From NCBI GenBank assembly GCA_032161105.1, contig JAVHTD010000001.1: a stretch of DNA of 64,000 nt; one strand, given 5' to 3'. Source of the stretch: Candidatus Thermosaccharophagus tengchongensis. GTDB lineage: Bacteria; Armatimonadota; Fervidibacteria; Fervidibacterales; Thermosaccharophagaceae. Each line of letters begins with the position of its first letter. Within the stretch, counting starts at the first letter, position 1. The translations under genes and the position numbers were made by a program. The notes under the pieces are model-generated. The model had not been told where the DNA came from. It worked only from the letters and a program-made list of their open reading frames with translations, and ran no database searches. This document shows positions 33,376 to 49,329 of this stretch, piece after piece.

Positions 33376-35313
33376 GTGGCGATGGTTAGCGCAAGGACAA
33401 CATGTGGCTTTTGTGGGTGCGGTTGTGGCTTATATGTGTTGAGCGACGGCGATGGCGTCATCGGTGTAATACCGAGTGAGGCTGATGTGGTTGGCGAGGG
33501 CAGGTTGTGTATTCGTGGATGGCATATATATCAGCCGCTCAGGGACACGGATAGGATTTTGCGAGCCATCGTCTCGCTCAACGGATCCAAGCGTGAAGCG
33601 GATTACAAAGATGCAGTTTCGCGTGCTGCTGAGGCGCTCAAAAAATTTTCTCCGAACCAGATTGGCATCATTGCTTCGGCAACGGGCACAAATGAGGACG
33701 CATACATAGCTACAAAGTTTGCCAGAGCTGTCATTGGCACAAATAACATTGACTTCCCGGGACGCCCAAGGCTTATGCCAACGCTGATGCAGCTTGGCTC
33801 GGTTGATGAAGGCATATCAATGCCATGCACATTAAACGAGTTGGCGGATGCCGACTTGCTCTTCTGCATTGGCATCGGTGCTTCAACTCGCTACCCGCAG
33901 GTCACGGCGCGCATTTTCAAATCCGTCGTTGAGATGAAACATCTTCTGCTCATAGACACATGGCACTCGGACTTCGCGCCGTATGCATCACTGCACATCT
34001 CGCCAAAGCCGTTTTCGGATGCCGTCCTTTTGAGGGCGCTCGCCGGCATCTTGGACAGCGCTGTTAAAGTTCCATTCTCCGATGACGAGGTTAGCTCCAT
34101 AACTGGCGTAAGCTCGGAGCAACTTAGGGCGATGGGCGATTTGCTTTTGGGCGGCAAGCGTTTGGCTGCAGTTTACGATACGGCATCTCTGATGCACATG
34201 TGCTCGCCACATTGCGTTCGTGAGCTGTTGGTGTTAATCAGAGCCCTCAGGGGGAGGGGCATTGAATGGTGCGGTATTTTGCCCATGGTTGAGCGATGCA
34301 ACTCAAACGGCGCATTGCGCATGGGCATTGCGCCCATGCTCCTTCCCGGGTTGAAGAGCATAACGGATGGCGAAGCGGTGCGACGGGCATGCTCAATTTG
34401 GGGCATTGATGGCTTGCCGCAAGTGATGGGCATGAGCACATCTCAAATGCTATCGGCAGCTGTGAGCGGTGACTTGAAGGCTCTGATCATCATCGGTGAC
34501 GATTTGCTGACCGATGTCCCGGATGAGCAGCGGCTCAGGGACGCGCTCAGCAAAGTTGAGTTGCTAATTGCTATCTCGTCATACCATTCGCCGCTCACGG
34601 AGGCAGCTCGGTTCGTATTCCCGAGGTCAATTTGGGGTGAGACAGTGGGCACGCTTGTGAACACGGAGGGACGAATGCGCCGGCTCATAAGGGTTGCCGA
34701 ACCACATGGTGATGCGATGCAGGAGTGGCAAGTGCTTTGCGACCTCGCAACGGCGCTCGGCTTCAAAATGAGCTATTCAAGCAGCGATGAAGTGCTTGAT
34801 GAGTTGAAGCGTTTTGTGCCCGAATATTCTGACATTGAGCTGGACGAGGTGGGAAAGGGCACATGCCTGCTCCGTGAAAAGCCGGCGTGCGCACCAGAGA
34901 ACATCACACACGAGGAAATCGCCATACCCGAATTGCCATCTCCCTCCGATGAGTTCCCGTTGCTGCTTCTGGTTGAGCGATACTACTTGCCGTGGCATGC
35001 GGATACACTTGCGCTTCACTCGTCAACTCTTCGGCGCGAGTTCAGGCTCCGGTTTACGCCATATGTGTTCGTCAATTCGGCGCAAGGACATTCGTTTGGC
35101 TTGCGAGATGGCATGCCGGCGCTCCTAAAGACACCGCAGGGGAGTGCACGCGTGACATCAGTCTTTAACGACGCCGTCCCAGCTGGCATTGCCATACTAC
35201 CCGAGATGTTCTTTGCTCAACTGCGCCAAGCAGTCGGACAGGAAAGGGTTGACGAGCTCACTGGGGCAACCATTTACCCGGTGACAGTGGCGGCATTGGA
35301 GCGTGCAAGATAG
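33376..35313 (+). CDS. FdhF/NuoG-like molybdopterin-oxidoreductase-fold protein with N-terminal [4Fe-4S] site, lacking the catalytic Cys/Sec
   Basis: CGFCGCGC...LCIRG cluster motif, TNEDAY, GTNNID, GTLVNTEGR; the CARV(C/U)H segment is replaced by FPGRPRL. Confidence 0.85.
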   Translation: MAMVSARTTCGFCGCGCGLYVLSDGDGVIGVIPSEADVVGEGRLCIRGWHIYQPLRDTDRILRAIVSLNGSKREADYKDAVSRAAEALKKFSPNQIGIIASATGTNEDAYIATKFARAVIGTNNIDFPGRPRLMPTLMQLGSVDEGISMPCTLNELADADLLFCIGIGASTRYPQVTARIFKSVVEMKHLLLIDTWHSDFAPYASLHISPKPFSDAVLLRALAGILDSAVKVPFSDDEVSSITGVSSEQLRAMGDLLLGGKRLAAVYDTASLMHMCSPHCVRELLVLIRALRGRGIEWCGILPMVERCNSNGALRMGIAPMLLPGLKSITDGEAVRRACSIWGIDGLPQVMGMSTSQMLSAAVSGDLKALIIIGDDLLTDVPDEQRLRDALSKVELLIAISSYHSPLTEAARFVFPRSIWGETVGTLVNTEGRMRRLIRVAEPHGDAMQEWQVLCDLATALGFKMSYSSSDEVLDELKRFVPEYSDIELDEVGKGTCLLREKPACAPENITHEEIAIPELPSPSDEFPLLLLVERYYLPWHADTLALHSSTLRREFRLRFTPYVFVNSAQGHSFGLRDGMPALLKTPQGSARVTSVFNDAVPAGIAILPEMFFAQLRQAVGQERVDELTGATIYPVTVAALERAR

Positions 35314-35334: not shown

Positions 35335-36432
35335 GTGGGGAGCATGTCAGGCGCATCGGCGGAGATAAGAGCAATGGTGCTCCGCAAGGAAAGGCTCAAT
35401 GATTTGCTTTGGTCAATTGAGGGTCAGTTAGCTGCGCCCATTCGCCTTGAGCATGGCGAGGTTCACTTTGCGGTCAATCCGCCAATTGAGCAAATCTTGC
35501 AGGACTCAGATTATGTGAACAGCACAATATCGCCTGTGGCACTCCTTTTCCCGCAGACCGAGATCCTCTTCAATTTCAAGCTCAATGGCAAGCCGCAAAT
35601 TGAGTTCCCAAAGGAGCCACAGCCGCTGACCATATTCGGCATACGCTCGTGTGATGTTGCGGCAATGCGTTACCTTGAGATGTTCTTCTCGCGCAAGTTC
35701 ATTGACACCCCATTCATGGAGCGAGCCAGCAGGACAACGCTGATAAGCATAGCCTGCCAGCGTCCGGGAAGCAGCTGCTTTTGCCCATGTTGTGCTGGCG
35801 GTCCATTCCTTGAGGAGGGGCATGACATTCAACTCACCGACTTTGGAGACATCTTCCTCGTTGAGGTTGGCTCACATAAGGGCGCACAGTTTGCCGATGG
35901 GCGAATGGAGTTCTTTGAGCCGGCGCCATGCGAATTGATTGAGCGGCGAAACAGGGTGGCTGAGGAGACGCTGCAGAAGTTTCAGATTGCATCGCACATG
36001 GGCACTGGTGTCCGCAAATTGACATCAAGGTCGGTTTCAGAGGAGCTTTGGAATATGATGGCAGCGAGATGCATTGAGTGTGGCGGGTGCGCATTCGTGT
36101 GCCCGCTATGCACATGCTTTGATGTAGTTGACCACAAGCTTCCGCCAGATGGTGATGGGGCAGCTCGTGGTTGGCGGGAGAGGTGTTGGGATTGCTGTCA
36201 ATTTGCCGGCTACTCAATTGAGGCAGCTGGTGTTAATCCGCGCCCGAACAAGGTGAGCAGGTTTAAGCGCCGTTTCTATCACAAGCTCAGCTACTTCTAC
36301 ATGGAGATGGATGGGCGTGTTGGGTGCGTTGGCTGTGGGAGGTGCATCCAAGTCTGCTTTGGCGTCGTTGACATGCCGGCAGTGGTGAACACGCTTAGGG
36401 AAGAGAAGCTACTTGGGGTAAGGCTGAGGTAA
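35335..36432 (+). CDS. 4Fe-4S dicluster protein, AsrA/sulfhydrogenase beta (HydB)/FlxB-like
   Basis: FGIRSCD, CFC, CIECGGCAFVCPLCTCF, RCWDCC, CVGCGRCIQVC. Confidence 0.88.
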   Translation: MGSMSGASAEIRAMVLRKERLNDLLWSIEGQLAAPIRLEHGEVHFAVNPPIEQILQDSDYVNSTISPVALLFPQTEILFNFKLNGKPQIEFPKEPQPLTIFGIRSCDVAAMRYLEMFFSRKFIDTPFMERASRTTLISIACQRPGSSCFCPCCAGGPFLEEGHDIQLTDFGDIFLVEVGSHKGAQFADGRMEFFEPAPCELIERRNRVAEETLQKFQIASHMGTGVRKLTSRSVSEELWNMMAARCIECGGCAFVCPLCTCFDVVDHKLPPDGDGAARGWRERCWDCCQFAGYSIEAAGVNPRPNKVSRFKRRFYHKLSYFYMEMDGRVGCVGCGRCIQVCFGVVDMPAVVNTLREEKLLGVRLR

Positions 36433-36484: not shown

Positions 36485-37378
36485 ATGGCAATGGAAGCAC
36501 TTCAAGCGGCATGTAACGGCAAGCATCTCTACGAACCGGTGTTGGCACGCATCGTTGAGATAACCGATGAAACGCCCGATGTGAAGACATTCACGCTTGA
36601 GCTTGAATGCGGCGCAATTGAATATCGTCCCGGGCAGTTTGCCGAGGTATCTGTGTTCGGCGTCGGTGAAGCGCCATTTGGCATCTCGTCAAGTCCGACA
36701 TGGACGAAGCGGACTGGGTATATCCAAGTGACTGTGCGTGCAGTTGGGAGGGTGACTGGTGCGCTCCATCAACTTAATGTTGGCGACTATGTTGGTGTGA
36801 GGGCACCATTGGGTAATGGTTTTCCGGTTGAGCGTGCCGAGGGTAAGCGCGTGATAATCGTCGGTGGCGGAATTGGCTTGCCGCCGCTTCGCTCCCTCCT
36901 CAATTACATGTTGGATAACCGTGAACGCTTCGGGAAGATAACTCTTCTCTACGGTGCACGCACACCTGCCGATAGGGTTTACAAGCGCGAGCTTGATGAA
37001 TGGGAAAGGCGAGATGATTTGGAATACCTGGACACGGTTGATATTGCCGATGAGGAGTGGCAAAGGCTCGGCAAGCGTGTTGGCGTTGTAACGACGCTCT
37101 TTCCGATAATAGACGAGCAAAGTCCCATTGACCCGCCAAACACGATCGCCTTCATCTGTGGACCGCCAATCATGATTCATTTCGTCATCATTGAACTTGA
37201 GAAGCGCAATGTGCCAGATGAGAACATCATCTCAACGCTTGAGCGACACATGAAGTGTGGCGTTGGCAAGTGCGGTCATTGCGCCATCGGGCACAAGTAT
37301 GTTTGCACCGATGGTCCCGTTTTTTCTTGGGCTGAGATGAAAGAGCTTGAATGGATGTGCGCTGAGCCAACTGTGTAG
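36485..37378 (+). CDS. FAD/NAD(P)-binding [2Fe-2S] protein, AsrB/sulfhydrogenase gamma (HydG)/FlxA-like
   Basis: PGQF, GEAPFGISS, VGRVT, GGGIGLPPLRS, YGART, CGPPIM, MKCGVGKCGHC, VCTDGPVF. Confidence 0.9.
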   Translation: MAMEALQAACNGKHLYEPVLARIVEITDETPDVKTFTLELECGAIEYRPGQFAEVSVFGVGEAPFGISSSPTWTKRTGYIQVTVRAVGRVTGALHQLNVGDYVGVRAPLGNGFPVERAEGKRVIIVGGGIGLPPLRSLLNYMLDNRERFGKITLLYGARTPADRVYKRELDEWERRDDLEYLDTVDIADEEWQRLGKRVGVVTTLFPIIDEQSPIDPPNTIAFICGPPIMIHFVIIELEKRNVPDENIISTLERHMKCGVGKCGHCAIGHKYVCTDGPVFSWAEMKELEWMCAEPTV

Positions 37379-37419: not shown

Positions 37420-37908
37420 GTGCCTGAGGAAAACCAATTGGAGGTTCTCTGTCGGGTGTTGAGGGGGAGGGTGGCTATCATCGGTATCGGAAATGAGATG
37501 CGCGGTGATGATGCGGTTGGATGTTATGTGGCTCGATGCCTTGAGGGTGTTGAAGATATGCTCGTAGTAGAGGCTGGCGATGTGCCCGAAAACTATGTTG
37601 GTCTGCTGCGCGAGTATAAACCCGAATGTGTTGTATTCATTGACGCCGTTGATGTTGGGGCTGAACCTGGCTCAATTGTCATAGCAAGTGCTGATGAGCT
37701 ACCATCTTCTGCCGTTGTGTCAACGCATGGTATGCCGTTGAAGTTGCTTTCCGATTACCTGCTCCGTGAAGTTGGCGCCAGAGTGATGCTCATTGGGATA
37801 CAAGTGCGCAGGACAGCACTTAATGCGCCGATAAGCAAAGAGGTGTGTGAGGCAGCTGAAGCGATTGTTGAGTTGATTCGCTCAGCACGATTGGCAATGA
37901 GGGCTTAA
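37420..37908 (+). CDS. hycI: Hydrogenase maturation endopeptidase (HycI-like)
   Basis: GIGNEMRGDDAVG, PEN, IDAVD, STHGMPL. Confidence 0.88.
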   Translation: MPEENQLEVLCRVLRGRVAIIGIGNEMRGDDAVGCYVARCLEGVEDMLVVEAGDVPENYVGLLREYKPECVVFIDAVDVGAEPGSIVIASADELPSSAVVSTHGMPLKLLSDYLLREVGARVMLIGIQVRRTALNAPISKEVCEAAEAIVELIRSARLAMRA

Positions 37909-37992: not shown

Positions 37993-38967
37993 TTGGTCAG
38001 CATGATATGGGTGATTTTGCACGCAAGTTTATCGCCTGCTACGGCAACAGTAGTGCAAGTTGCCGAGAGCGGAGAAAAGCAAGTTCGCCTCTTTAAGGTG
38101 GCATCGTTTAAGGTTGACCAATTGCCAGTGCTTGCCACTCGCTTTTCCGGCGAGATGCTGATGGCGCTTACTAAGGGAGGAAAAGCATGTGCTTTGAATG
38201 TGACGGCGCGCAAGCGTGTGCGTGAGTTTAAGTGTGCGGATAAACTCATTAAAGTCGGTGCGTTCTCAGGCGATGGCAAATGGCTTGCTTGTTCCGACGA
38301 GAGCCAAGTCGTTAAAGTTTATGAGTTAGCCAGCGGTAAGGAAGTTGCAACCATAAGGGGACATGGCGGCGAGATAAGGCAAATGGCATTCTCGCCGCAT
38401 GGAGAGTTGCTCGCAATCGCTTGCGAAGGTTGTTGCAACATGGAGGGAGATACACGCCTTTGGTGGGCAAAGTCGGGCAAGCTTTTTCGCAGGTTAAGTG
38501 GTGATGCCTTTAGCGTTGCATTTCTGGGTGGCAGCAAGCTTATTGCAGTTGGCGGAAGGAATGCTGTGGCAGTTTGGGATGTGAGTGAGGGGAAGATGGT
38601 GCGGAGGTTGCAAGTTGGGTTAAAGGTGAACAACATCTGCTTCTCTGACAAGCGTGGGTTGCTGATAGCCAGCGCTGCTGATGGTGTTCGTCCATTTGAG
38701 CTTTCAAGTTGGCGCGTTAAGCCGTTGATTGAGGTAAGGCGTGCAAGTTCGCTTTCATGCTCTCCGGATGGCTCGCTGCTCGCCGTTGGCACTTACGATG
38801 GTGTCACTGTTGTGGACACCATCAGATGGAAAGCCATTCTTCGGCTCACTGAACACGGTGGTTCTTTTACATCGGTGGCATTTTCTCAAGACGGAGCATT
38901 GCTTGCAGCCGCGAATGTTGGTGGGATGGTAGTGGTGTGGAAAGTGGTGAGGCAAAAACAGCGATAA
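37993..38967 (+). CDS. WD40 repeat beta-propeller protein
   Basis: Repeated AFSxDG..LA and GH...W(D) units. Confidence 0.85.
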   Translation: MVSMIWVILHASLSPATATVVQVAESGEKQVRLFKVASFKVDQLPVLATRFSGEMLMALTKGGKACALNVTARKRVREFKCADKLIKVGAFSGDGKWLACSDESQVVKVYELASGKEVATIRGHGGEIRQMAFSPHGELLAIACEGCCNMEGDTRLWWAKSGKLFRRLSGDAFSVAFLGGSKLIAVGGRNAVAVWDVSEGKMVRRLQVGLKVNNICFSDKRGLLIASAADGVRPFELSSWRVKPLIEVRRASSLSCSPDGSLLAVGTYDGVTVVDTIRWKAILRLTEHGGSFTSVAFSQDGALLAAANVGGMVVVWKVVRQKQR

Positions 38968-38982: not shown

Positions 38983-40491
38983 ATGGATAACATGGTTGTT
39001 TGGTGCATGCTCCTCATTGCCATTCCGGGTATCAGCGGGATTGTATGTGCGCTCTTGCCTGATAGGGCTTCGCGCATTGTTGCCACATTTGCGTCTCTCG
39101 CCACAGCCGGTGTTGGCTTATGGTTGATTGGCAACTATGGGTTTGAGGAAAATGTCGCGGAGTTGGGTGGCTTGGCTTGGATAACCAAGGTTGCAGGGGT
39201 AAGGGTCAACTTGTTTGGCTTCATCATTGATCCGCTAACGAGCATCATGCTATCGCTCGTTGTCGTGATTGGCTTCCTTGTCGTGCTTTATTCAACCGAC
39301 TACATTAGTTCCGGCAACAGGGAGCATCCAGTGACTAAAGGCGCATCGCGCTATTTCAGTTGGATGCTCTTATTCATCGCCTCAATGGCTGGCGTCGTCA
39401 CCTCTTCCACATTCCTTCAGCTTTTTATCTTTTGGGAGCTAACGACGCTGTGCTCATGGGCGCTCATCTCGTTTGACTATGATGATCCGGAAGCCATGCG
39501 TGCGGGCTACAAGGCGTTGTTGATGACGCATGTTGGTGGGCTGTTCTTGATGACCGCTGTCGTATTGCTCTTTGCGCACACGAGGTCGTTTGATTTTAAC
39601 GCCATGACTCGGCTCACTCCGACCATGCAAGCCACATTGATAGTGCTGATGTTCATAGGCGCTTGGGCGAAGGCTGCGCAGTTTCCATTTTACACATGGC
39701 TTCCCGATGCAATGGTTGCACCAACGCCGGTCAGCGCATATTTGCACGCTGCTGCCATGGTCAAAGCCGGAATATACTTGCCAGCAAGGGCAGTGCTTGC
39801 AGTTCGTCCATTCCTGAAAGCCTTCCAATCAACGGCTCTTGACACTGCTGGAATACTTATGGGCGCACTCTCAATCATCACGATTATCGTGGGGTGCTAC
39901 ATGTTCTTCTACCAAGACGACTTGAAACGCTTGCTCGCTTTTTCAACGATAGTTCACCTTGCGCATGTCCTGATGGAGTGGGCATGCGGTTCACTTGGTT
40001 GCTCAATATGCTATCAAAGCGGCTTAGTGCACATTATCGCTCACGGTGTTGGGAAAGGTTTGCTTTTCCTATCTGTTGGTGCGGTGGCATATGCGACCGG
40101 CACAAGGCGCATAAGTCAACTCAGTGGTGTTGGCTTAAAGATGCCGATTGTAACGGTTGGCTTTCTCATCGGTGTGCTGACCATCTCAGGTTTACCACCG
40201 TTTGCGGGCTTTTGGAGCAAGCTTTATTTTGTCGCTGGAGCAATAACGCTTGGCAGATGGGGTATACTTTTTGTCATCGTGGGTCTGGTTGATGCCATCA
40301 TACGATTTGGTTGGTTCATATGGGTAGCTCACAAAGTGTTTGCCGGCGAACCATCAGAGCCAGTCCGCAATGCCAGCGGGATTCCACTTGCTATTGGGAC
40401 AGCGGTTGTCATCATGATGCTGCTTTGTTTTGTTTCAACACCATTTGCTGTGCAAATGGCTGCAACTGCTGTTGGGCTTTGTGTTGGTTGA
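38983..40491 (+). CDS. Hydrogenase-4-type antiporter-like membrane subunit (HyfD/NuoL-like)
   Basis: FIFWELTTLCSWALI, KAAQFPFYTWLPDAMVAPTPVSAYLHAAAMVKAG, DDLKRLLAFST. Confidence 0.88.
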   Translation: MDNMVVWCMLLIAIPGISGIVCALLPDRASRIVATFASLATAGVGLWLIGNYGFEENVAELGGLAWITKVAGVRVNLFGFIIDPLTSIMLSLVVVIGFLVVLYSTDYISSGNREHPVTKGASRYFSWMLLFIASMAGVVTSSTFLQLFIFWELTTLCSWALISFDYDDPEAMRAGYKALLMTHVGGLFLMTAVVLLFAHTRSFDFNAMTRLTPTMQATLIVLMFIGAWAKAAQFPFYTWLPDAMVAPTPVSAYLHAAAMVKAGIYLPARAVLAVRPFLKAFQSTALDTAGILMGALSIITIIVGCYMFFYQDDLKRLLAFSTIVHLAHVLMEWACGSLGCSICYQSGLVHIIAHGVGKGLLFLSVGAVAYATGTRRISQLSGVGLKMPIVTVGFLIGVLTISGLPPFAGFWSKLYFVAGAITLGRWGILFVIVGLVDAIIRFGWFIWVAHKVFAGEPSEPVRNASGIPLAIGTAVVIMMLLCFVSTPFAVQMAATAVGLCVG

Positions 40492-40590
40492 ACATGCTCA
40501 GCAACTCCTTAAGCGATTGCTCATTTGAAGCTTTTCGGCGTCCTTGCGAGGTGGATAGCTTGCACAGGCAAAAGTGAGGTGGCAGAAGTT

Positions 40591-42651
40591 ATGCAGCTCT
40601 CCCAGGAAGGCTTTGCATTCGCTATTATGGGCGTCTTCTTCATCGGCGCGCTTGTGACGGCGGCAACTTCTTCGCTGCGCCGTTTGACGGCATGGGTGGG
40701 GTTCATTTTCACACTCGCTGGTTCGGTGCTGTGTATGATGATTGCTGTCAAAGCCTTCTATGCACCTGCGGTTGAACCTGGGCGTCCTCACCTCACCCTG
40801 CCAATCTTGAATGCATCGCTTCAGGTCCGCATTGATGCGTTGTCATCTCCCTTCTTGTTCATTATCGGTTTGCTCGGCACATGTGCTGCACTATACTCCG
40901 TTGGCTATATCACGCACGAGCGCTACAGGGAGGAGCATCTGATTCGCTATTATCCGTTTCTGATGTTCTTCCTCATGGGCATGGTTGGCACAGTAGCGAG
41001 CTGGGATATGTTTTACTTCCTCGTCTTTTGGGAACTGATGGCGCTTTCATCTTATGTGCTCATCATCTTTGAGAAGCGCGATCCAGTTGTGTTGCGTGCT
41101 GGCTTGAAATATTTTGTGATGACTCACATCGGCACAACTTGTATTGTCACTGGCGTCATCATTGTTTGGCTCTGGTGCAGGTCATTCAGCTTTGATTCAC
41201 TGAAGATCGGCATGGAAGTCCTCTCACAGGAGCGACCGAGGTTACTTCACCTTGTGCTGCTTTTGCTTTTCATTGGTTTTGCCACTAAGGCAGCTCTATT
41301 CCCATTTGGCGATTGGCTGCCAGACGCTCACCCAGCTGCTCCCTCAGCAATTTCGGCATTGCTATCTGGCGTGATGATAAAGATGGGCGTGTATGGCATG
41401 CTCCGCACATTCGTTTGGATGATGCCATACTCACCGCACCTTAGCACATGGGGATTGATTATAGCCTTCTTTGGCGCACTGACATTTGTTGTGTGCTCCA
41501 CAGCTGGCTTGTTCCAAAACGATTCAAAACGCCTATTGGCGTTCAGCAGCATGTCGCAGATAGGCTATGTATGTGTTGGAATTGGTGTTGGCGTTGGCTT
41601 TCTTCGCGTCTCGCCAGCGATAAGCGCACTCGGATTTATCGCTGGGTTGTATCATGTCCTCAATCACGCATGCATGAAAGGACTGCTCTTCCTGAATGCC
41701 GGCTCTGTTCTGATTCGCACTGGAACTCGCGACATGAACTTGCTTGGCGGCTTATGGCGCTTCATGCCAACGACGGCTCTGACAGCGCTCATTGCCTCCC
41801 TCGCTATATCCGGCATGCCGCCGCTCAACGGGTTTGTAAGCAAGTGGATGGTTTATCATGCGTCCATTATGAGCGGCTTGCAAGCTCCTGTGTATCTTGC
41901 TTTCGGCGTAGCTGCCATTTTCATCTCGGTCGTCACGCTCGCCATGTTTGCCAAATTCATGGGCGCAATCTTTATCGGGTTGCCATCAAAGCTCGTGAGC
42001 CAAATTGAGTGGCAGCTCCGTGAGGTTGATTGGACCATGACTGTATCACAAGTTGTGCTTGCGCTTATGTGCATTGCGCTTGGGCTTTTCCCCTCACATG
42101 TTGTGCCAATCCTTTACTGTGCCGTTGAAACCATGCGCCCTGAGTTTGCACCGCCAATTGATGCGCTCATCTCCGGCACACCAATCTCGCTTGGACTATG
42201 CGTTGGTGAGGGTGTCTCTGGCGTTTTTTCGCCGCTCGTTTTTGTGCTGGCACTCATGCTGTGCATGCTCATCCCATATGCCCTTTATAAGCTCTCAGGT
42301 GCTCAAGTTAGAGTTGCATCACCATGGGCATGTGGCGAGTCGCATTCGCACGATGAATTGCGATATCGCTCAAGCAGCTTTTACCTTCCGTTCCAAAGAT
42401 TCATGTCCTTTAGGATTGGTCAAAGGCGCATAACGACACTCTATCCGACATTGCCAAAGCCGAGAACTCCATGGCTGGCAAAGCTTCGCGTCGTCTTTGA
42501 TGTGGACACGCTTTACAATGCTGTCATTCGTGTCGGAGCGAGGGCGTGTGAATGGTTCAGCGCGACACATGCCGGAATCCCACAGCTTTATGTGTTGTGG
42601 ATAGTTGCCGGTGTGGTGCTCGCAATCTTGTTGCTCTTTTTGCTCTCCTAA
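40591..42651 (+). CDS. Hydrogenase antiporter-like membrane subunit (HyfB/HycC-like)
   Basis: FWELMALSSY, WLPDAHPAAPS..SALLSGVMIKMG, PPLNGFVSKW, PWACG; ATG at 40591 with SD GAGGTG. Confidence 0.88.
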   Translation: MQLSQEGFAFAIMGVFFIGALVTAATSSLRRLTAWVGFIFTLAGSVLCMMIAVKAFYAPAVEPGRPHLTLPILNASLQVRIDALSSPFLFIIGLLGTCAALYSVGYITHERYREEHLIRYYPFLMFFLMGMVGTVASWDMFYFLVFWELMALSSYVLIIFEKRDPVVLRAGLKYFVMTHIGTTCIVTGVIIVWLWCRSFSFDSLKIGMEVLSQERPRLLHLVLLLLFIGFATKAALFPFGDWLPDAHPAAPSAISALLSGVMIKMGVYGMLRTFVWMMPYSPHLSTWGLIIAFFGALTFVVCSTAGLFQNDSKRLLAFSSMSQIGYVCVGIGVGVGFLRVSPAISALGFIAGLYHVLNHACMKGLLFLNAGSVLIRTGTRDMNLLGGLWRFMPTTALTALIASLAISGMPPLNGFVSKWMVYHASIMSGLQAPVYLAFGVAAIFISVVTLAMFAKFMGAIFIGLPSKLVSQIEWQLREVDWTMTVSQVVLALMCIALGLFPSHVVPILYCAVETMRPEFAPPIDALISGTPISLGLCVGEGVSGVFSPLVFVLALMLCMLIPYALYKLSGAQVRVASPWACGESHSHDELRYRSSSFYLPFQRFMSFRIGQRRITTLYPTLPKPRTPWLAKLRVVFDVDTLYNAVIRVGARACEWFSATHAGIPQLYVLWIVAGVVLAILLLFLLS

Positions 42652-42693
42652 TGAGCTGTGGCAGTGAAAAGCCGAGTATTGGAGGGATGCAGC

Positions 42694-44421
42694 ATGACTT
42701 CGCAGGAGCTGATCCAAAGGCTTCGTGAGGATTTGAATGGCAAGGTGATTGATTGCTGGGAGCCGAGAGATGGAAGGGTGTTTGTAAAAGTTTCACCAAG
42801 CGATATCGTGTCAGTTTGCGATTATGTCTTCAACACGCTTGGTGCACGCTACATGACCACTTGCGCAACCGATGACAGATTCCGCACAGGCAAGTTTACA
42901 GTGACTCACTTCTTCTCGCTTGACCCCGACAAGCTATTCCTGTCCATTAGGGCTGAAGTGGATCCTGAAAATCCGGTGCTCCCATCAATCACACCGCTTA
43001 TTCCGGGTGCTGATTGGGCTGAGCGTGAGCAGCAGGATTTGGTCGGAGTCAGGTTTGAGGGTCATCCAGATCCGAGGAGACTTGTGTTGCCCGATGATTT
43101 CCCGCTTGACTTGCACCCGTTGCGCAAGGATTACCCATACAACTATCGCCCGCAGCCCGATATGCGTGGCAAGGTCGCGATGAAGGAGCCGCCTGATGGA
43201 ACGACAGTGGTCGCAGTTGGACCTTTCTTTCCGGTCCTTGAGGAGCCGGCATACTTCAGGCTTTTCGTTGATGGCGAGACGGTTGTTGGCTGCGATTATC
43301 GTGGCTTTTACAATCACCGCGGCATTGAGAAGCTCGGCGACAGCAAGCTCACATTCAATCAAATTGTTTTCCTTGCCGAGCGCATATGAGGGATATGAGG
43401 CTTCATACACAGCACGGTGTGCTGTGAGGCTACAGAAAACGCTCTCGGAATAAGGGCACCAAGGCGAGCGAGATTCATCAGAAGTATTATGCTTGAGATT
43501 GAGCGAATACATAGCCATCTGCTTTGGCTTGGCATTGCGGGGCATATAATCGGCTTTGATACAGTGCTTATGCAGGCGTGGCGCATACGAGAACCAGTAA
43601 TGTGGCTTGCTGAATACATCACCGGCAATCGCAAAACATACGGCATGAACATCATTGGTGGCGTAAGGCGGGATATAACAAGGGAGAAGCATGAGCGCAT
43701 CCTTGAAGTGATGAGGCGAGTTGAGGAGGAAGTAGTGGCAATCATAAAGGCGGTTGAGGGTGACACGATGCTCCATGCAAGGCTTCGTGGCGTTGGGTAT
43801 CTTTCACCTGAGGATGCAAGGGCAATGTGCGTTGTTGGTCCGACTGCGAGGGGCTCTGGAGTCGCAATTGATGCGCGTGTTGATCATCCATACGCAGCAT
43901 ATGATGAACTTGTGCCGGAAAAGAAAGTGCATGACGAGTGCGACATATGGGCAAGGACGCTCGTGCGCCTTGAGGAAACGATGGAATCAATCAGGCTCGT
44001 TAGAGAGGGCATAAAAGCGCTTCAGGATATGCCAGAGGGCGACATAGTCATTAACATAACCGAGGATGTGCCTGAGGGTCTTGAGGGCATATCAGTTGTT
44101 GAGGCGCCACGAGGCGAGTGCATCCATTATGTCATCACGAGCGCGGAAAATAGACCGCACAGATGGCGAGTCCGTGCACCCTCATACATGAACATCCATG
44201 CGCTGCCTGTCATGTTCAAAAACACAAATGGAGGTATACCGGGCGAGCCATTCATTAACGCGAACCTTGCAGACATACCGATAATTGTTGGGAGCATTGA
44301 CCCATGCTTCTCATGCACCGAACGAGTTGAAGTGATTGATGTTAGGAACAGGCAGATGAGAGTTTTCAGGCACAGTGAATTGATTGAGCTGTGTAGGCAA
44401 GCCACAAGCCGAAATAGATAA
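42694..44421 (+). CDS. hycE: Group 4 [NiFe]-hydrogenase large subunit (HycE/HyfG-like, NuoC+NuoD fusion) with two in-frame TGA codons at the L1 cysteines (putative Sec232 and Sec235)
   Basis: ORFs 42658-43389 and 43417-44421 share one frame; the junction reads ERI-TGA-GI-TGA-GFIHST, matching RxCGxCGxxHS; HRGIEK, VEAPRGE and C-terminal DPCFSCTER with a cleavable tail are intact; total 575 aa, close to full HycE size. Confidence 0.9.
43399..43431 (+). promoter_or_regulatory. Candidate bacterial SECIS element in the large-subunit mRNA
   Basis: Perfect 8-bp stem CACAGCAC/GTGCTGTG with apical GGT loop, a 4-nt bulge and a lower GGCTT/AGGCT stem with G-U pairs; loop starts 17 nt after the second UGA and 26 nt after the first. 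Confidence 0.7.
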
Positions 44422-44459: not shown

Positions 44460-45026
44460 TTGGAAGGGCAAGAGATGGATGAATTCTTGAGGTTAGTGTT
44501 GGAGGGCGTTGATGTGGAAGCATTAGCAGCTGGCGATAACCGTGAACTTGAAAGGTTCAAGGCGAACATGCTTAGGGTTGGAAGGATGATTTACTCAAAG
44601 CCGCCAGCTGAGAGGGCAAGGTGGTTTTCGGCATTGAGGGCTGGCTCACTTCAGTTAATTGCTCAAATACCCATCATTACACCGATGCTGACTGCAATCC
44701 TTGAGAGCGCCACCGGGGAAGACCTTGGAAGCAAAATAGATGCCCTTGGAAGCAAAATAGACGCCCTTGGAGGAAAAATAGACGCCCTTGGAAGCAAAGT
44801 GGATGCCCTTGGAGGAAAAATAGACGCCCTTGGAAGCAAAGTGGACGCCCTTGGAGGAAAAATAGATGCCCTTGGAAGCAAAGTGGACGCCCTTGGAGGA
44901 AAAATAGACGCCCTTGGAAGGGACTTGGGCGGGAAGATGGATCAAATGTTGAGCTTGCAAAGGGAAACAATCGGCTTCCTTGCGAGGATATTGAATGTGC
45001 TTGAGGAGAGGTTGCCGCGAGCATGA
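44460..45026 (+). CDS. Hypothetical coiled-coil protein with 9 tandem heptads LG(S/G)K(I/V)DA
   Basis: Open frame co-oriented inside the operon, with SD-like GGGGGGTG upstream; heptad repeat. Confidence 0.75.
   Translation: MEGQEMDEFLRLVLEGVDVEALAAGDNRELERFKANMLRVGRMIYSKPPAERARWFSALRAGSLQLIAQIPIITPMLTAILESATGEDLGSKIDALGSKIDALGGKIDALGSKVDALGGKIDALGSKVDALGGKIDALGSKVDALGGKIDALGRDLGGKMDQMLSLQRETIGFLARILNVLEERLPRA
44724..44918 (+). repeat. Tandem 21-bp repeat, 9 full copies plus a partial, mostly alternating two variants (42-bp higher-order unit)
   Basis: CTTGGA(A/G)G(C/A)AAA(ATA/GTG)GA(C/T)GCC units head-to-tail with no spacers. Confidence 0.95.
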
Positions 45027-45055: not shown

Positions 45056-45967
45056 ATGCTCAGGCTCTGGCTGGCTATACTCAATGTGATTGTGGTCCTA
45101 TTCTTTGCACCGCTATTTGAGGGGTTTGTCCGCAAATACATACGGGCTAATGTCGCGCATTCAAGGAGAGGTCCACTTGTCGGTGTATGGCAGCCGTTTT
45201 ATGACTTGCTAAAGCTGTTTGCGAAGGAGGACATACGGGTTGGCGGTCCACTTCAAACATTCATGCCCATGTTGTGCTTCAGTTCAATCTTGGTGGCTTC
45301 TTTGTTTTTGCCGATTGCAGGTCTTGCGCCACTTGAGGAGTATGGGGATATCATAGCTTTCGTTTACACAATAGGACTGGCTATCACGGCGCTCGCCATT
45401 ACTGCGTTGGATACAGGTTCGCCATATTCATACTCCGGTGCGATTAGGGAATTGATGCTCATGGCATTGGTTGAGCTCGTGTTCATCAGTGCCTTGCTTT
45501 GCGGTGCCGTATGCGCTCGTTCTCTGAGGTTATCCGAGATAATCCTTTGGTATCGTTCCCGGGCGTTTTCTTTCCCGATGATTTTAGCTGCGGGCACACT
45601 CTTCTTAGCCATGCTTGCTCAGTTTGGTCGCCTCCCATTTGACATACCGGAAGCAGAACAAGAGATCATGGGCGGACCGCTCATTGAAATTTCTGGACCA
45701 AGGCTTGCCCTGCTCAGATGGGCAATATGGATGCGTCAGTTTGTAAGCGCGTCGCTGTTTGCATGTGTGTTTATACCTTGGTGGACGACAGGCATACTCA
45801 TCGTTGATTTGCTCATAACGCTCATAAAGGTGTTTGTGGTGTTTGTCTTGGTCACCGTGATTGAGGTGCTCTCGCCCCGTCTTAGAGTTGATCAGGCACT
45901 CAACTTTTACCTTGGCGTTTTTCTCACATCGGCGATAGCGATTGCTATTGCCTATGTCGCGCCATAA
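45056..45967 (+). CDS. Hydrogenase membrane subunit (HycD/HyfC, NuoH-like)
   Basis: SRRGP...WQPFYDLLKLFAKE, GRLPFDIPEAEQEIMGGPLIEISG, PRLR. Confidence 0.92.
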   Translation: MLRLWLAILNVIVVLFFAPLFEGFVRKYIRANVAHSRRGPLVGVWQPFYDLLKLFAKEDIRVGGPLQTFMPMLCFSSILVASLFLPIAGLAPLEEYGDIIAFVYTIGLAITALAITALDTGSPYSYSGAIRELMLMALVELVFISALLCGAVCARSLRLSEIILWYRSRAFSFPMILAAGTLFLAMLAQFGRLPFDIPEAEQEIMGGPLIEISGPRLALLRWAIWMRQFVSASLFACVFIPWWTTGILIVDLLITLIKVFVVFVLVTVIEVLSPRLRVDQALNFYLGVFLTSAIAIAIAYVAP

Positions 45968-46000
45968 AGCGAACCAATGGCGTTGGAGGGGGCATATCCA

Positions 46001-46510
46001 ATGATAGGGAGCAAGTTGAGGGAATTGATAATAGCAATTCGTGGTGGTGCTCCAAGACCGCTCGTTGTGACTTTGCCATATCCGCTTGGGCGAGGCGCTG
46101 AGGTCCCCGAGGGCTTTAGAGGGAAGGTTGAAGTTGATGTATCAAAGTGTGTTGGGTGTGGTGGGTGCGCGAATGTGTGCCCGCCAAGGTGCATTATTGT
46201 TGAGGACATCTCTCCGCTTTGGAGGAGAATGACAATACTGAGGGAGAGGTGCACATACTGTGCGCGCTGCCAAGAAGTGTGTCAGGAGAACGCCATAGCC
46301 CTTACGATGGAGTTTGAGCTTGCCACTGATGACCCAAACGACCTAACCGATACTTGGGAAGTCTTCATGGCAACATGTTCACGCTGTGGCAGATGCTTCA
46401 AGCCGAAAACAGCTTTGGATAAGATGATGGAAACGGGCTATAAGCCGCCAATGCAAAAGCGCTATGGTGCTGTCGCAACAGTGCCAGTTGAGTCAAGCTC
46501 GTCATCTTGA
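46001..46510 (+). CDS. Hydrogenase 2x[4Fe-4S] subunit (HycF/HyfH, NuoI-like)
   Basis: TLPYP, FRGK, CVGCGGCANVCP, CTYCARCQEVC, FELA, CSRCG; ATG at 46001 with SD (alternative 45977). Confidence 0.92.
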   Translation: MIGSKLRELIIAIRGGAPRPLVVTLPYPLGRGAEVPEGFRGKVEVDVSKCVGCGGCANVCPPRCIIVEDISPLWRRMTILRERCTYCARCQEVCQENAIALTMEFELATDDPNDLTDTWEVFMATCSRCGRCFKPKTALDKMMETGYKPPMQKRYGAVATVPVESSSSS

Positions 46511-46525
46511 AAGGGGTGAACTGGT

Positions 46526-47209
46526 ATGCCCTTAGCTATCCAACAGAGTGACATTTTGGCATTGCTCATGATTGCGCATCTTCTTGCATCACTTGTGGCA
46601 GCTGAGTTGCGCAACCTGCGCTCAGCCGTATGGGCTCTCATTATTCAATCCTTCCTCCTGACATGCATCATAGCCTCGTTCGCTTTCGTCTGGAACAACT
46701 ATACGCTTTTGATCTGGGCGGCTATAACCCTCGCAACGAAGGTCGTCCTTATCCCGTCAATCTTGCTCTACCACCTGCGCGTCACATCGCTCGTGACGGA
46801 GCTCCGCCCGTTGATCGGATTGAGAGCCTCAATCATATTTGGAAGCATCCTCGTCATCGTCTTCTACTGGTTGCTTCGCACATACATCTACTTCGTTGCT
46901 CCAACGCAAGCTGCATTGGTTGAGCCAGCACGCTCAAACCTCGCCATCGCATTTTGCGTTTTCTCACTCGGCGTTTATGTGCTTATCACCAGAAGGGATG
47001 TGGTTAAGGTTGTCATAGGGTTGCAGCTGCTTGAAAATGGTGCTCACTTGGCGCTCATTACACTGGCGCCAACATTGCCACCAACAACGAAGCTCGGGAT
47101 ATGGACGAATGTCGTCGTCGCAGCTTACATGCTCATTAAGCTTGCAGAGGGCATCTACAAGACGCTCGGCGTTGTTGATACTCTAACGCTCTCAGAACTT
47201 AAGCGTTAA
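46526..47209 (+). CDS. Hydrogenase-4 membrane subunit E-like (HyfE)
   Basis: Small polytopic protein; TKVVLIP, LLENGAHL, terminal LSELKR. Confidence 0.8.
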   Translation: MPLAIQQSDILALLMIAHLLASLVAAELRNLRSAVWALIIQSFLLTCIIASFAFVWNNYTLLIWAAITLATKVVLIPSILLYHLRVTSLVTELRPLIGLRASIIFGSILVIVFYWLLRTYIYFVAPTQAALVEPARSNLAIAFCVFSLGVYVLITRRDVVKVVIGLQLLENGAHLALITLAPTLPPTTKLGIWTNVVVAAYMLIKLAEGIYKTLGVVDTLTLSELKR

Positions 47210-47242: not shown

Positions 47243-48766
47243 ATGATGGTGGAATCGTGGTTGCCCATCCTTGTCTTCGCCATCCCAACAATTTGTGGCG
47301 TCATAAGCCTTTCCTTCAGGCGTGCAAGCGCTCTCTTTCACAGCGTGATCGCCGTCCTCGGGCTTGCTGGGACATTTGCCATCTCTGTGGCAATCACAAG
47401 TGATGTGCTGCGCGGCAATGTGCTTGTCGCGCTCAATAATGCTGTTTATGCCGATGGTCTAAGTGCCTTGATGGAATTGCTCGGAAGCTGCATGGGGATG
47501 CTCGTGGCTATCTATTCAATCCGATACATCCCAATTCATGTTGCCCGCCGCCCCGATGCGCCTCAGAGGCTTAGCACATACTATGGGCTGTTGCTCCTCT
47601 TCCTTGGGATGATGAATTGGACATGCGTGACAAACAGCATTGTTTGGCTTTATGTCACGCTTGAGGCTACAACGCTTGCCACTGTCTTCCTCGTGACATT
47701 TTATTGGGAGAGGCGCTCGCTTGAAGCCGGCTACAAATATTTCATGCTTGTGACGATCGGGATCATATTTTCCCTCTTTGGTCTCGTGCTCATTTATTCA
47801 GGTGCTGTGGAGCTGCCGGAAATGCAAGGGCGTGATGTGCTCCTTATAACCGAGCTCAGCAGGATCGGGCGAAAGATACCGCGCAGCGTTGTGCTGCTTG
47901 CAAACGCGCTTCTCATTGCTGGCTTTGGAGCGAAGGCTGGGCTTGTCCCATTCCATGCATGGCTTCCGGATGCGCACGCAGAGGCACCAGCACCAATTAG
48001 CGCTTTGCTATCGGGTATCGTGATAAAGGTCGGCGCATACGCTATCGCAAGGACTGCAACAATATTTGCACCCCAGTATCCGCCTATCATAGTCTTCATT
48101 GCAATCATGGCTTCACTGAGCATGGTCGTCGGGATACTGATGGCGCTCGTCCAAGACGACATAAAGCGCATGCTTGCATACTCATCCGTAAGCCAGATTG
48201 GTTATGTTGTTGAGGGGCTTGGTCTTGGGACATACCTTGGAATTTATGGCGGTCTGTTCCACCTCGCAAACCACACCATCGTCAAGGCGCTTCTCTTCCT
48301 TTCCGCTGGTGCGATTGCGCATGTTACTGGCACAAGGAAGATGAGCGAGCTTGGTGGGCTCGTGCATCGGATGCCAGTTACAGCTGTTTGCTTCTTCATT
48401 GGCGCGCTCGCCATCGGCGGGTTGCCACCGTTTAATGTGTTCATGAGCAAGTTCACACTTTTTGCCGCTGTGGCTGATGCCGGTCTGATATGGGCTGCGG
48501 TGATAGCAGTGTTTACAGGGCTGTTAACAGTGGCGTGCTTTGTGCGTGCTGCGATGCGCATATTCTGGGGCAAGCCGTCGGAGATTACTCAGGCTGCTTT
48601 AGCGTATGCGAATGGTGGCGAAGGAAGGTTGCCTATGAGTATGGTTATCCCGATGGTCTTGCTCGCCATCTTAACGGTGGTAATCGGTCTTTATCCGGGA
48701 TTGATTCACCCGCTGTTGGATAGCGCAACAGAGTGCATTTTGAAGGTGCTTCGTGGGGCATTCTGA
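47243..48766 (+). CDS. Hydrogenase-4 antiporter-like subunit (HyfF/MrpD-like)
   Basis: LEATTLAT.FLV, SLEAGYKY, KAGLVPFHAWLPDAHAEAPAPISALLSG, KRMLAYSS, PPFNVFMSKF. Confidence 0.88.
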   Translation: MMVESWLPILVFAIPTICGVISLSFRRASALFHSVIAVLGLAGTFAISVAITSDVLRGNVLVALNNAVYADGLSALMELLGSCMGMLVAIYSIRYIPIHVARRPDAPQRLSTYYGLLLLFLGMMNWTCVTNSIVWLYVTLEATTLATVFLVTFYWERRSLEAGYKYFMLVTIGIIFSLFGLVLIYSGAVELPEMQGRDVLLITELSRIGRKIPRSVVLLANALLIAGFGAKAGLVPFHAWLPDAHAEAPAPISALLSGIVIKVGAYAIARTATIFAPQYPPIIVFIAIMASLSMVVGILMALVQDDIKRMLAYSSVSQIGYVVEGLGLGTYLGIYGGLFHLANHTIVKALLFLSAGAIAHVTGTRKMSELGGLVHRMPVTAVCFFIGALAIGGLPPFNVFMSKFTLFAAVADAGLIWAAVIAVFTGLLTVACFVRAAMRIFWGKPSEITQAALAYANGGEGRLPMSMVIPMVLLAILTVVIGLYPGLIHPLLDSATECILKVLRGAF

Positions 48767-48813
48767 TTTCATCGTTTTTGTGGTGGCGCAGATTCCCCCG
48801 TGAGGTGAGCATA

Positions 48814-49329
48814 ATGGTCGGATGGTTTAGAGGGTTGTGCGAGAAGGCGTTCACGAAGGCACTTTGGGTCTTTCATGCAAACACCGGCGCATGTAACGGG
48901 TGCGACATTGAGGTCATCAATGTGCTCACCCCATATTACGATGCCGAGCGTTTTGGTATAAGGCTCGTTGGCTCACCGAGACATGCGGATGTGATCATCG
49001 TCACAGGTCCAGTTACAAGGCAATCCGCGCCAGCGCTTGAGCGGCTGATTGAAGCTGTTCCATCACCAAAGTTGATCATCGCCGTCGGCTCTTGCCCGAC
49101 TGGTGGAGGGATGTGGTTTGACTCGTATTCCACATGTGGTGGCTTAGCTAACTTCCTCAAGGACAGAGGGATCAACATACCCGTGTATTACATCCCGGGA
49201 TGCCCACCTCGTCCTGAAGCAATCCTATACGGTGTGGCATTGGCACTTGGCTTGGTTGACAAGAAGGTGGCTGGGAAGCATCTCAAGCAGGGGTTGCTCC
49301 CGCCGAAGAAGAGCAGCGATGAGCAATGA
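48814..49329 (+). CDS. Group 4 hydrogenase small subunit (HycG/HyfI, NuoB-like)
   Basis: GACNGCDIE, SPRHAD, GSC, YIPGCPPRP; ATG at 48814 with SD GAGGTG. Confidence 0.93.
   Translation: MVGWFRGLCEKAFTKALWVFHANTGACNGCDIEVINVLTPYYDAERFGIRLVGSPRHADVIIVTGPVTRQSAPALERLIEAVPSPKLIIAVGSCPTGGGMWFDSYSTCGGLANFLKDRGINIPVYYIPGCPPRPEAILYGVALALGLVDKKVAGKHLKQGLLPPKKSSDEQ

Follow-up and report, generated by a model that had tools for sequence, protein, structure and literature searches.

Which amino acids does a hydrogenase receive when the codons for its two N-terminal nickel-binding residues are both UGA? The question is raised by a gene of Candidatus Thermosaccharophagus tengchongensis that lies in a 64,000-nucleotide stretch of contig JAVHTD010000001.1 (GenBank assembly GCA_032161105.1), which we call the window. 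The gene would encode the large subunit of a group 4 [NiFe]-hydrogenase in which both cysteines of the N-terminal metal-binding motif, L1, are replaced by UGA, and an earlier note, made from the sequence alone, had proposed that it belongs to a natural hydrogenase with two selenium ligands. The two UGA-coded positions are confirmed here, and insertion of selenocysteine (Sec) is the best current reading of them. The argument turns on the following features of the window:

42694..44421 (+): large (catalytic) subunit of a group 4 (Hyf/Hyc-like, 4b) [NiFe]-hydrogenase, fused NuoC-like and NuoD-like (Pfam, phmmer)
43387..43389 (+): UGA1, codon 232, at the first Cys of the L1 motif (alignment, orthologs)
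43396..43398 (+): UGA2, codon 235, at the second Cys of the L1 motif (alignment, orthologs)
43399..43431 (+): hairpin of 33 nt resembling a selenocysteine insertion sequence (SECIS), its lower stem directly after UGA2 (folding, conservation)
44299..44325 (+): L2 motif DPCFSCTER, both Cys kept (frame translation, HycE alignment)

The large-subunit frame comprises 575 codons followed by a TAA stop, and the two TGAs are its only internal stops; it holds no frameshift. Around them it reads CGC ATA TGA GGG ATA TGA GGC TTC ATA CAC AGC ACG, or R-I-U-G-I-U-G-F-I-H-S-T with U for Sec. Both UGAs lie inside a direct 9-nt repeat, ATATGAGGG / ATATGAGGC (Ile-UGA-Gly twice; window 43384-43401, plus strand), so that they share their immediate 5' and 3' context. 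Pfam detects Complex1_30kDa, Complex1_49kDa and NiFeSe_Hases in the read-through protein, whose best solved relative is E. coli HycE (7z0s_E; phmmer E 4.7e-125, residues 4-564 aligned), followed by Pyrococcus Mbh alpha (6cfw_L; E 1.2e-69). In both alignments the UGAs fall on the two Cys of R-x-C-G-x-C-x-x-x-H (in HycE, ...drvCgiCgfahst...); by homology, the UGA1 position would be a terminal nickel ligand and the UGA2 position the ligand that bridges nickel and iron. After the L2 motif, a 31-residue C-terminal extension of the type that HycI removes (44326-44418) is intact. The protein combines the marks of a group 4 large subunit, namely a NuoD-like catalytic domain, L1 with U at both cysteine positions and L2 DPCFSC, and its subgroup, 4b, is the HydDB assignment given for the identical protein by Takano, Inoue, Aono, Ochi and Mihara (September 2026, Front Microbiol 17:1925269; PMC13582414). 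The gene is best explained as encoding a functional catalytic subunit for a hydrogenase of the Hyf type (group 4b) that is bound to the membrane and translocates ions. The 575-codon frame with TGA for both L1 cysteines and the intact L2 motif and cleavable tail had all been described in the earlier note, and frame translation and the HycE alignment bore out every detail checked.

Independent sequence data agree on the two codons. Across 43300-43500, the contigs of all four public hot-spring metagenome runs, each from a different study, match the window without one differing letter (word depth at the large-subunit stretch, 22-798); the TGAs are thereby confirmed at the level of reads, as the note had called for. 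For comparison we used 41 genomes, consisting of the source assembly (G000; 97.4% complete, 44 contigs) and 40 relatives, among which G001-G003 are the other species of the genus. Both TGAs stand at the same two codons in all four species-level genomes of the genus (congener orthologs, 89% protein identity), and L1 reads R-I-C-G-I-C, with TGC or TGT, in all 13 more distant orthologs (12 from the sister family at 56-57% identity and one, from G038 of another family, at 52%). In-frame UGA, Cys in homologs and conservation among close relatives are the marks of a bacterial selenoprotein. Among the four genus genes, the ratio of nonsynonymous to synonymous divergence (dN/dS, pairwise Nei-Gojobori) lies at 0.023-0.063 on either side of the TGAs; dS is 0.5-2.8 in 10 of the 12 half-gene comparisons, and the remaining two were too saturated to compute. 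The 3' half is under strong purifying selection, and the gene is therefore neither truncated nor dead. The expectation that two chance nonsense mutations at exactly these residues are unlikely holds up on these data, and the proposed comparison of TGA with Cys codons in relatives gave the two-way split just described, with relaxed selection not seen.

UGA is recoded site-specifically in this organism and the code is not changed genome-wide: TGA is the commonest stop in G000, ending 737 of 1277 open reading frames (ORFs) of at least 300 aa, and release factor 2 (RF2; prfB, 503 bits) is present. Because A has been kept at both third positions at dS 0.5-2.8, the product would seem to differ from cysteine; a UGA that meant cysteine would be expected to drift to UGC or UGU, since that change is synonymous and cheaper.

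The SECIS-like hairpin that had been noticed beside the UGAs is borne out by folding. In the centroid fold, the upper stem pairs CAGCAC (43410-43415) with GUGCUG (43419-43424) around an apical GGU loop (43416-43418), at -15.1 kcal/mol (z -3.23; one of 200 shuffles was equally good). The upper stem begins 11 nt past UGA2 and 20 nt past UGA1. In E. coli, the 11-nt spacing from UGA to upper stem is strict. The hairpin is predicted to be a SECIS element, lying just downstream with a G in its apical loop, and its spacing is canonical for UGA2 only. Across the four species, variation among the 15-codon windows of the gene is lowest at codons 231-245 (0.13 of codons varying versus 0.725 overall); the hairpin is near-invariant in the genus, and two G003 substitutions (C-G to U-G and U-G to U-A) preserve pairing. 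All four genus genes use AGC for the Ser whose codon forms part of the stem, and ACG for Thr; in Cys-type orthologs, Ser is TCA or TCC and Thr is ACG in only two of 11 codons. As an internal control we used selD of G000 (C5:91187-92119, minus strand), in which an in-frame UGA takes the place of the residue equivalent to Cys17 (..RASG-U-ASKW..); after a spacer of 11 nt comes a stem of 7 bp, interrupted by one bulge, that carries a GGU loop. The layout UGA-N11-stem-GGU loop is common to selD and hydrogenase UGA2, and because the hairpin thus stands to UGA2 as the organism's own selD SECIS stands to its UGA, UGA2 is taken as the canonical site. Rfam at gathering thresholds and ARAGORN found nothing within the window itself.

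Most of the machinery for Sec insertion is present in G000. Its tRNA-Sec, of 95 nt and 75.9 bits, has the canonical form, with an acceptor stem of 8 bp, a D stem of 6 bp, G73 and UCA; SelB scores 413.5 bits as the only one of five matches over the SelB cut-off (the second-ranked, a 402-aa GTPase frame, is probably EF-Tu), SelD is of the Sec type, and HypD is present. Of the four genes that had been proposed for this search, selA is the one not found in G000, and no selB* was found either. The only UGA-recoded genes found in G000 are the hydrogenase and selD; the scan was not exhaustive, and others may exist. This de novo selenoproteome scan combined codon-usage scores, frame comparison and Shine-Dalgarno and hairpin filters; it lists mostly shadow frames and same-frame adjacent genes, and its strict version missed both positive controls, the hydrogenase and selD.

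Sec is supported by the complete canonical route in the genus, the Sec-type SelD and a SECIS with the organism's own geometry, and we put the probability that Sec is inserted at both UGAs, at least with selenium available, at roughly 0.6. SelB with Sec-tRNA(Sec) would bind the hairpin at 43399-43431 and direct Sec to UGA2, at the canonical 11 nt from the upper stem, and the same hairpin would also serve UGA1, 9 nt farther upstream. The product would carry selenium as a terminal nickel ligand (U232) and as the nickel-iron bridging ligand (U235), with the two cysteines of the C-terminal motif retained. We infer Sec rather than Cys, a single hairpin for both codons, the ligand roles and the electron donor considered below from these comparisons. 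Of the proposal of a natural two-selenium hydrogenase, the conserved recoded gene, the hairpin and the Sec machinery stand, and selenium at both sites is the more probable reading.

Several observations weigh against Sec at both codons. UGA1 lies at a non-canonical 20 nt from the upper stem, and among the four genus genes no hairpin pair has changed on both sides, so that the hairpin is backed by its conservation and folding energy and not by covariation. Neither TIGR00474, PF03841 nor tblastn with the SelA of G002 detected SelA in G000, and the 41-genome search did not find it in G001 either, which leaves two of the four genus assemblies without it; it was found in 32 of the 41 genomes, including two of the three congeners, G002 and G003. 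The archaeal-type SepSecS (TIGR03531) has no match in G000. Synteny gave no selA gap in G000, where the gene adjacent to selA in G002 matches inside C5 at just 63-70%. In G002 and G003, selA sits on short contigs or close to a contig end, and for this reason the selA region may assemble or bin poorly. In the table of Takano et al., SelA is present in the assembly with the identical protein and is listed in three of the five Armatimonadota rows (PMC13582414). The remaining points on this side concern an unusual tRNA and are best taken together with the explanation they favor.

In that explanation, one or both UGAs are read as Cys, constitutively or when selenium is scarce, by a Cys-tRNA resembling tRNA-ReC acting at SECIS-marked codons, and some or all of the enzyme would then be of the ordinary CxxC (or CxxU) kind. 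The earlier note had named Cys insertion by a SelC*-type tRNA as its alternative, and it is a live rival, which we hold to be possible but on balance doubtful. The tRNA class in question, selC* tRNA-Cys or tRNA-ReC, is said to go back to Mukai et al. 2017 and Vargas-Rodriguez et al. 2018. A candidate is present in G000:

C10:44437-44528 of G000, outside the window (-): long tRNA-Cys(GCA), 92 nt (tRNA search)

This tRNA has U73, an 8-bp long variable arm and a tRNA-Sec-like D-arm (5-bp/4-nt), and, at 46.7 bits, falls just short of the gathering score of the tRNA-Sec model (47); G000 also has a normal 74-nt tRNA-Cys(GCA) (C5:103083-103156). The long form occurs in all four genus genomes, always within the same tRNA cluster (Lys, Arg, Cys, His, Arg, Gly, Pro), in four of 20 sister-family genomes and in none of the 17 others searched. 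Compensatory changes separate the genus and sister-family copies in nine of 32 pairs, and the long tRNA-Cys is therefore a functional tRNA. With selC* tRNA-Cys and tRNA-ReC it shares the Cys identity marks (U73, GCA), the tRNA-Sec-like long variable arm and D-arm, and the presence of a canonical tRNA-Sec alongside. Takano et al. report tRNA-ReC-like genes in all five UXXU genomes of the Armatimonadota; among UXXU genomes as a whole the share is about 56%, versus about 2.3% of other Sec-type genomes, and the authors warn that Cys may be inserted at one or both UGAs (PMC13582414).

Against this, the anticodon GCA is cognate to UGC and UGU, not UGA. The long tRNA folds 7/5 (7-bp acceptor, 5-bp T stem), not in the 8/4 form with a bulge described for selC* tRNA-Cys (PMC7609411), and neither cysS* nor a second SelB that could serve as selB* accompanies it. 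It is also not tied to the UGAs, because the four sister-family genomes that carry it have CxxC orthologs or none. Finally, reversion to UGC or UGU would be synonymous and favored, yet both UGAs persist. These points lead us to retain Sec insertion as the preferred reading.

A mixed outcome, in which the two UGAs are read unalike, seems rather improbable to us. UGA2 would be read as Sec and UGA1 less efficiently, or as Cys at low selenium, giving a selenium-dependent mix of UxxU, CxxU and perhaps CxxC enzyme. The genus would then keep its Sec machinery mainly for the hydrogenase, because only the hydrogenase and selD were found to be UGA-recoded. The remaining explanations together carry a few per cent. 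A pseudogene, or a truncated product of about 231 residues with the TGAs as nonsense mutations, would fit the break that translation table 11 makes in the frame (42658-43389 and 43417-44421), but the TGAs fall exactly on the two ligand cysteines and are kept in all four species with dN/dS of 0.02-0.06 downstream as well as upstream, and neither another stop nor a frameshift is present while the rest of the operon, hycI included, is intact, so we regard decay as very improbable. Sequencing or assembly error and genome-wide reading of TGA as an amino acid are refuted, the former by the identical contigs of the four metagenome runs and by TGAs in four assemblies of different species, the latter by the stop-codon counts and RF2.

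UGA-coded nickel ligands are already known in silico, for this very protein. The earlier note knew of no described example; Takano et al. describe, in silico, 47 group 4 hydrogenase variants with Sec, including 16 group 4b enzymes of the UXXU type (PMC13582414). In their Supplementary Table 1, row 194 holds a protein of 575 residues that does not differ from that of the window over the 400 residues shown; it is labeled UXXU-CXXC and group 4b and comes from hot-spring sediment, from genus DRYI01 of the Armatimonadota class HRBIN17 (PMC13582414). Its tRNA-ReC(GCA) and SECIS strings equal those of G000 and its nucleotide sequence differs from the window at a few synonymous sites; as the assembly size also differs, it is another assembly of a very close strain. 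Nothing material differs between the two apart from SelA, which the row 194 assembly has and G000 lacks in these searches, and a repeat ORF of 188 codons that in the window comes after the large subunit. Like the window, the UXXU 4b hydrogenases of Takano et al. have R-I-U-G-I-U-G, a SECIS apical-loop G that is the third base of the Thr ACG codon, both tRNA-Sec and tRNA-ReC(GCA), and an operon type with a degenerate formate dehydrogenase (Fdh) and SHI beta/gamma homologs (PMC13582414). In passages of a May 2026 review, the other predicted bacterial UxxU selenoproteins are a Prx-like oxidoreductase, a metal-binding protein and an FmdB-family protein, with no group 4 hydrogenase.

Better-characterized enzymes differ from the window protein in the positions of their Sec or in their partners. 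E. coli HycE and HyfG (group 4a; 7Z0S/7Z0T) share with it the NuoC-NuoD fold, L1 and L2, the HycI-cleaved tail and Hyf-like membrane and Fe-S partners, but HycE has Cys at both L1 positions where the window protein has UGA. The partner of HycE, FdhH, is a true Sec formate dehydrogenase, whereas in the window the Cys/Sec-His pair is missing from the Fdh-like subunit and the complex gains a beta/gamma module of the NAD(P)H type. Classical [NiFeSe] hydrogenases (Desulfomicrobium baculatum, Desulfovibrio vulgaris Hys, Methanococcus voltae Vhu/Fru) likewise use a UGA-encoded Sec for a nickel-ligand Cys of the large subunit; these group 1 and 3 enzymes carry one Sec, at the first position of the C-terminal DPUxxC (PMC13582414), in contrast to the window protein, which has DPCFSC there and its UGAs in the N-terminal motif. 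Evans et al. (2021, PNAS; PMC8020662) placed Sec at each of the four nickel-ligand Cys of E. coli Hyd-1 and obtained working enzyme, with a marked change, extreme O2 tolerance, only at the position that natural [NiFeSe] enzymes use. Because these single C-to-U variants work, selenium at the L1 positions is chemically tolerable; unlike the window protein, they are single substitutions made by synthetic recoding in a group 1d uptake enzyme (PMC8020662).

To what was already published, the present analysis adds independent confirmation of the sequence in the data of four studies, strong purifying selection on both gene halves within the genus, a hairpin layout matched to the organism's own selD SECIS that marks UGA2 as the canonical site, and a long tRNA-Cys that is 7/5 and occurs also in CxxC relatives. 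If selenium does occupy both positions, this would be a natural hydrogenase with selenium as the nickel-iron bridge and as a second nickel ligand. To our knowledge, no characterized enzyme has that arrangement, and engineering has produced it only one site at a time. Such an enzyme would bear on the tuning by selenium of H2 production and O2 tolerance, and it would show one SECIS serving two UGAs nine bases apart.

The large subunit lies in a 16-kb plus-strand hydrogenase cluster, whose other members are as follows:

33376..35313 (+): Fdh-like molybdopterin-fold subunit without the Cys/Sec-His catalytic pair (profiles, alignment to 7qv7_S)
35335..36432 (+): sulfhydrogenase beta subunit homolog, HydB/ShyB-like, 4Fe-4S dicluster (profiles)
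36485..37378 (+): sulfhydrogenase gamma subunit homolog, FAD/NAD(P)-binding, 2Fe-2S (profiles)
37420..37908 (+): HycI-type hydrogenase maturation endopeptidase (PF01750, 57.6 bits; TIGR00072, 102 bits, over cut-off)
37993..38967 (+): WD40 beta-propeller protein (Pfam)
38983..40491 (+): HyfD-like antiporter-type membrane subunit (NF005097, 487.8 bits, over cut-off)
40525..42651 (+): HyfB-like antiporter-type membrane subunit (profiles)
44460-45026 (+): repeat ORF, 188 codons, TTG start, between the large subunit and the HyfC-like gene
45056..45967 (+): HyfC/NuoH-like membrane subunit (profiles)
45977..46510 (+): HycF/HyfH-like 2x[4Fe-4S] subunit (profiles)
46526..47209 (+): HyfE-like membrane subunit (profiles)
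47243..48766 (+): HyfF-like antiporter-type membrane subunit (profiles)
48733..49329 (+): NuoB-like hydrogenase small subunit (profiles)

The cluster has the composition of a group 4 operon, with NuoB-like, NuoH-like, antiporter-like and 2x[4Fe-4S] subunits together with HycI, and the profile searches agree with the earlier description of intact operon genes and protease. On TIGR00142 the protease scores 110 bits, slightly below the cut-off of 119. In the Fdh-like subunit, ..GRPRLMPT.. aligns with ..CARLCHAPT.. of Thermoanaerobacter FdhF (7qv7_S), and the protein reaches 284.7 bits on TIGR01591 (Fdh-alpha) against a cut-off of 666; a true Cys-type formate dehydrogenase of G000 lies on another contig, C8, with 863 bits. 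Because the Fdh-like subunit lacks the Mo/W-ligand Cys/Sec and the His, and scores far below the Fdh-alpha cut-off, the complex is probably not a strict formate hydrogenlyase, and this subunit is probably an Fe-S scaffold rather than a formate dehydrogenase. The sulfhydrogenase beta/gamma homologs beside it point to an NAD(P)H-linked rather than a formate-linked enzyme: electrons would probably come from NAD(P)H by way of these homologs and the degenerate Fdh-like Fe-S subunit. The complex is more likely NAD(P)H-linked, ion-translocating and H2-evolving, and it is perhaps confurcating. Takano et al. hold the same physiological view for the operon type with degenerate Fdh and SHI beta/gamma homologs (PMC13582414).

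The span 45977-47209 was considered as a further selenoprotein by way of two TGAs and rejected, since it holds two adjacent genes, the HycF-like and the HyfE-like. The repeat ORF contains a tandem repeat (44723-44920) of 9.4 copies of 21 nt, or 4.7 of 42 nt, that encodes GSKIDAL-type heptads. It has no tblastn match at this site in the congeners, where the HyfC-like gene directly follows the large subunit, and it appears to be an insertion in mid-operon. The WD40 gene, between hycI and the HyfD-like gene, is an unusual member of a hydrogenase operon.

Elsewhere in G000, ARAGORN reported three further odd tRNAs: an 87-nt tRNA-His(GTG) whose variable arm is long and whose G+C content is only 41% (C21:22132-22218), an 83-nt tRNA-Ser(ACT) near it (C21:29437-29519), and a 98-nt tRNA-Arg(ACG) (C9:77613-77710). 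These may be parts of mobile elements or non-canonical tRNAs.

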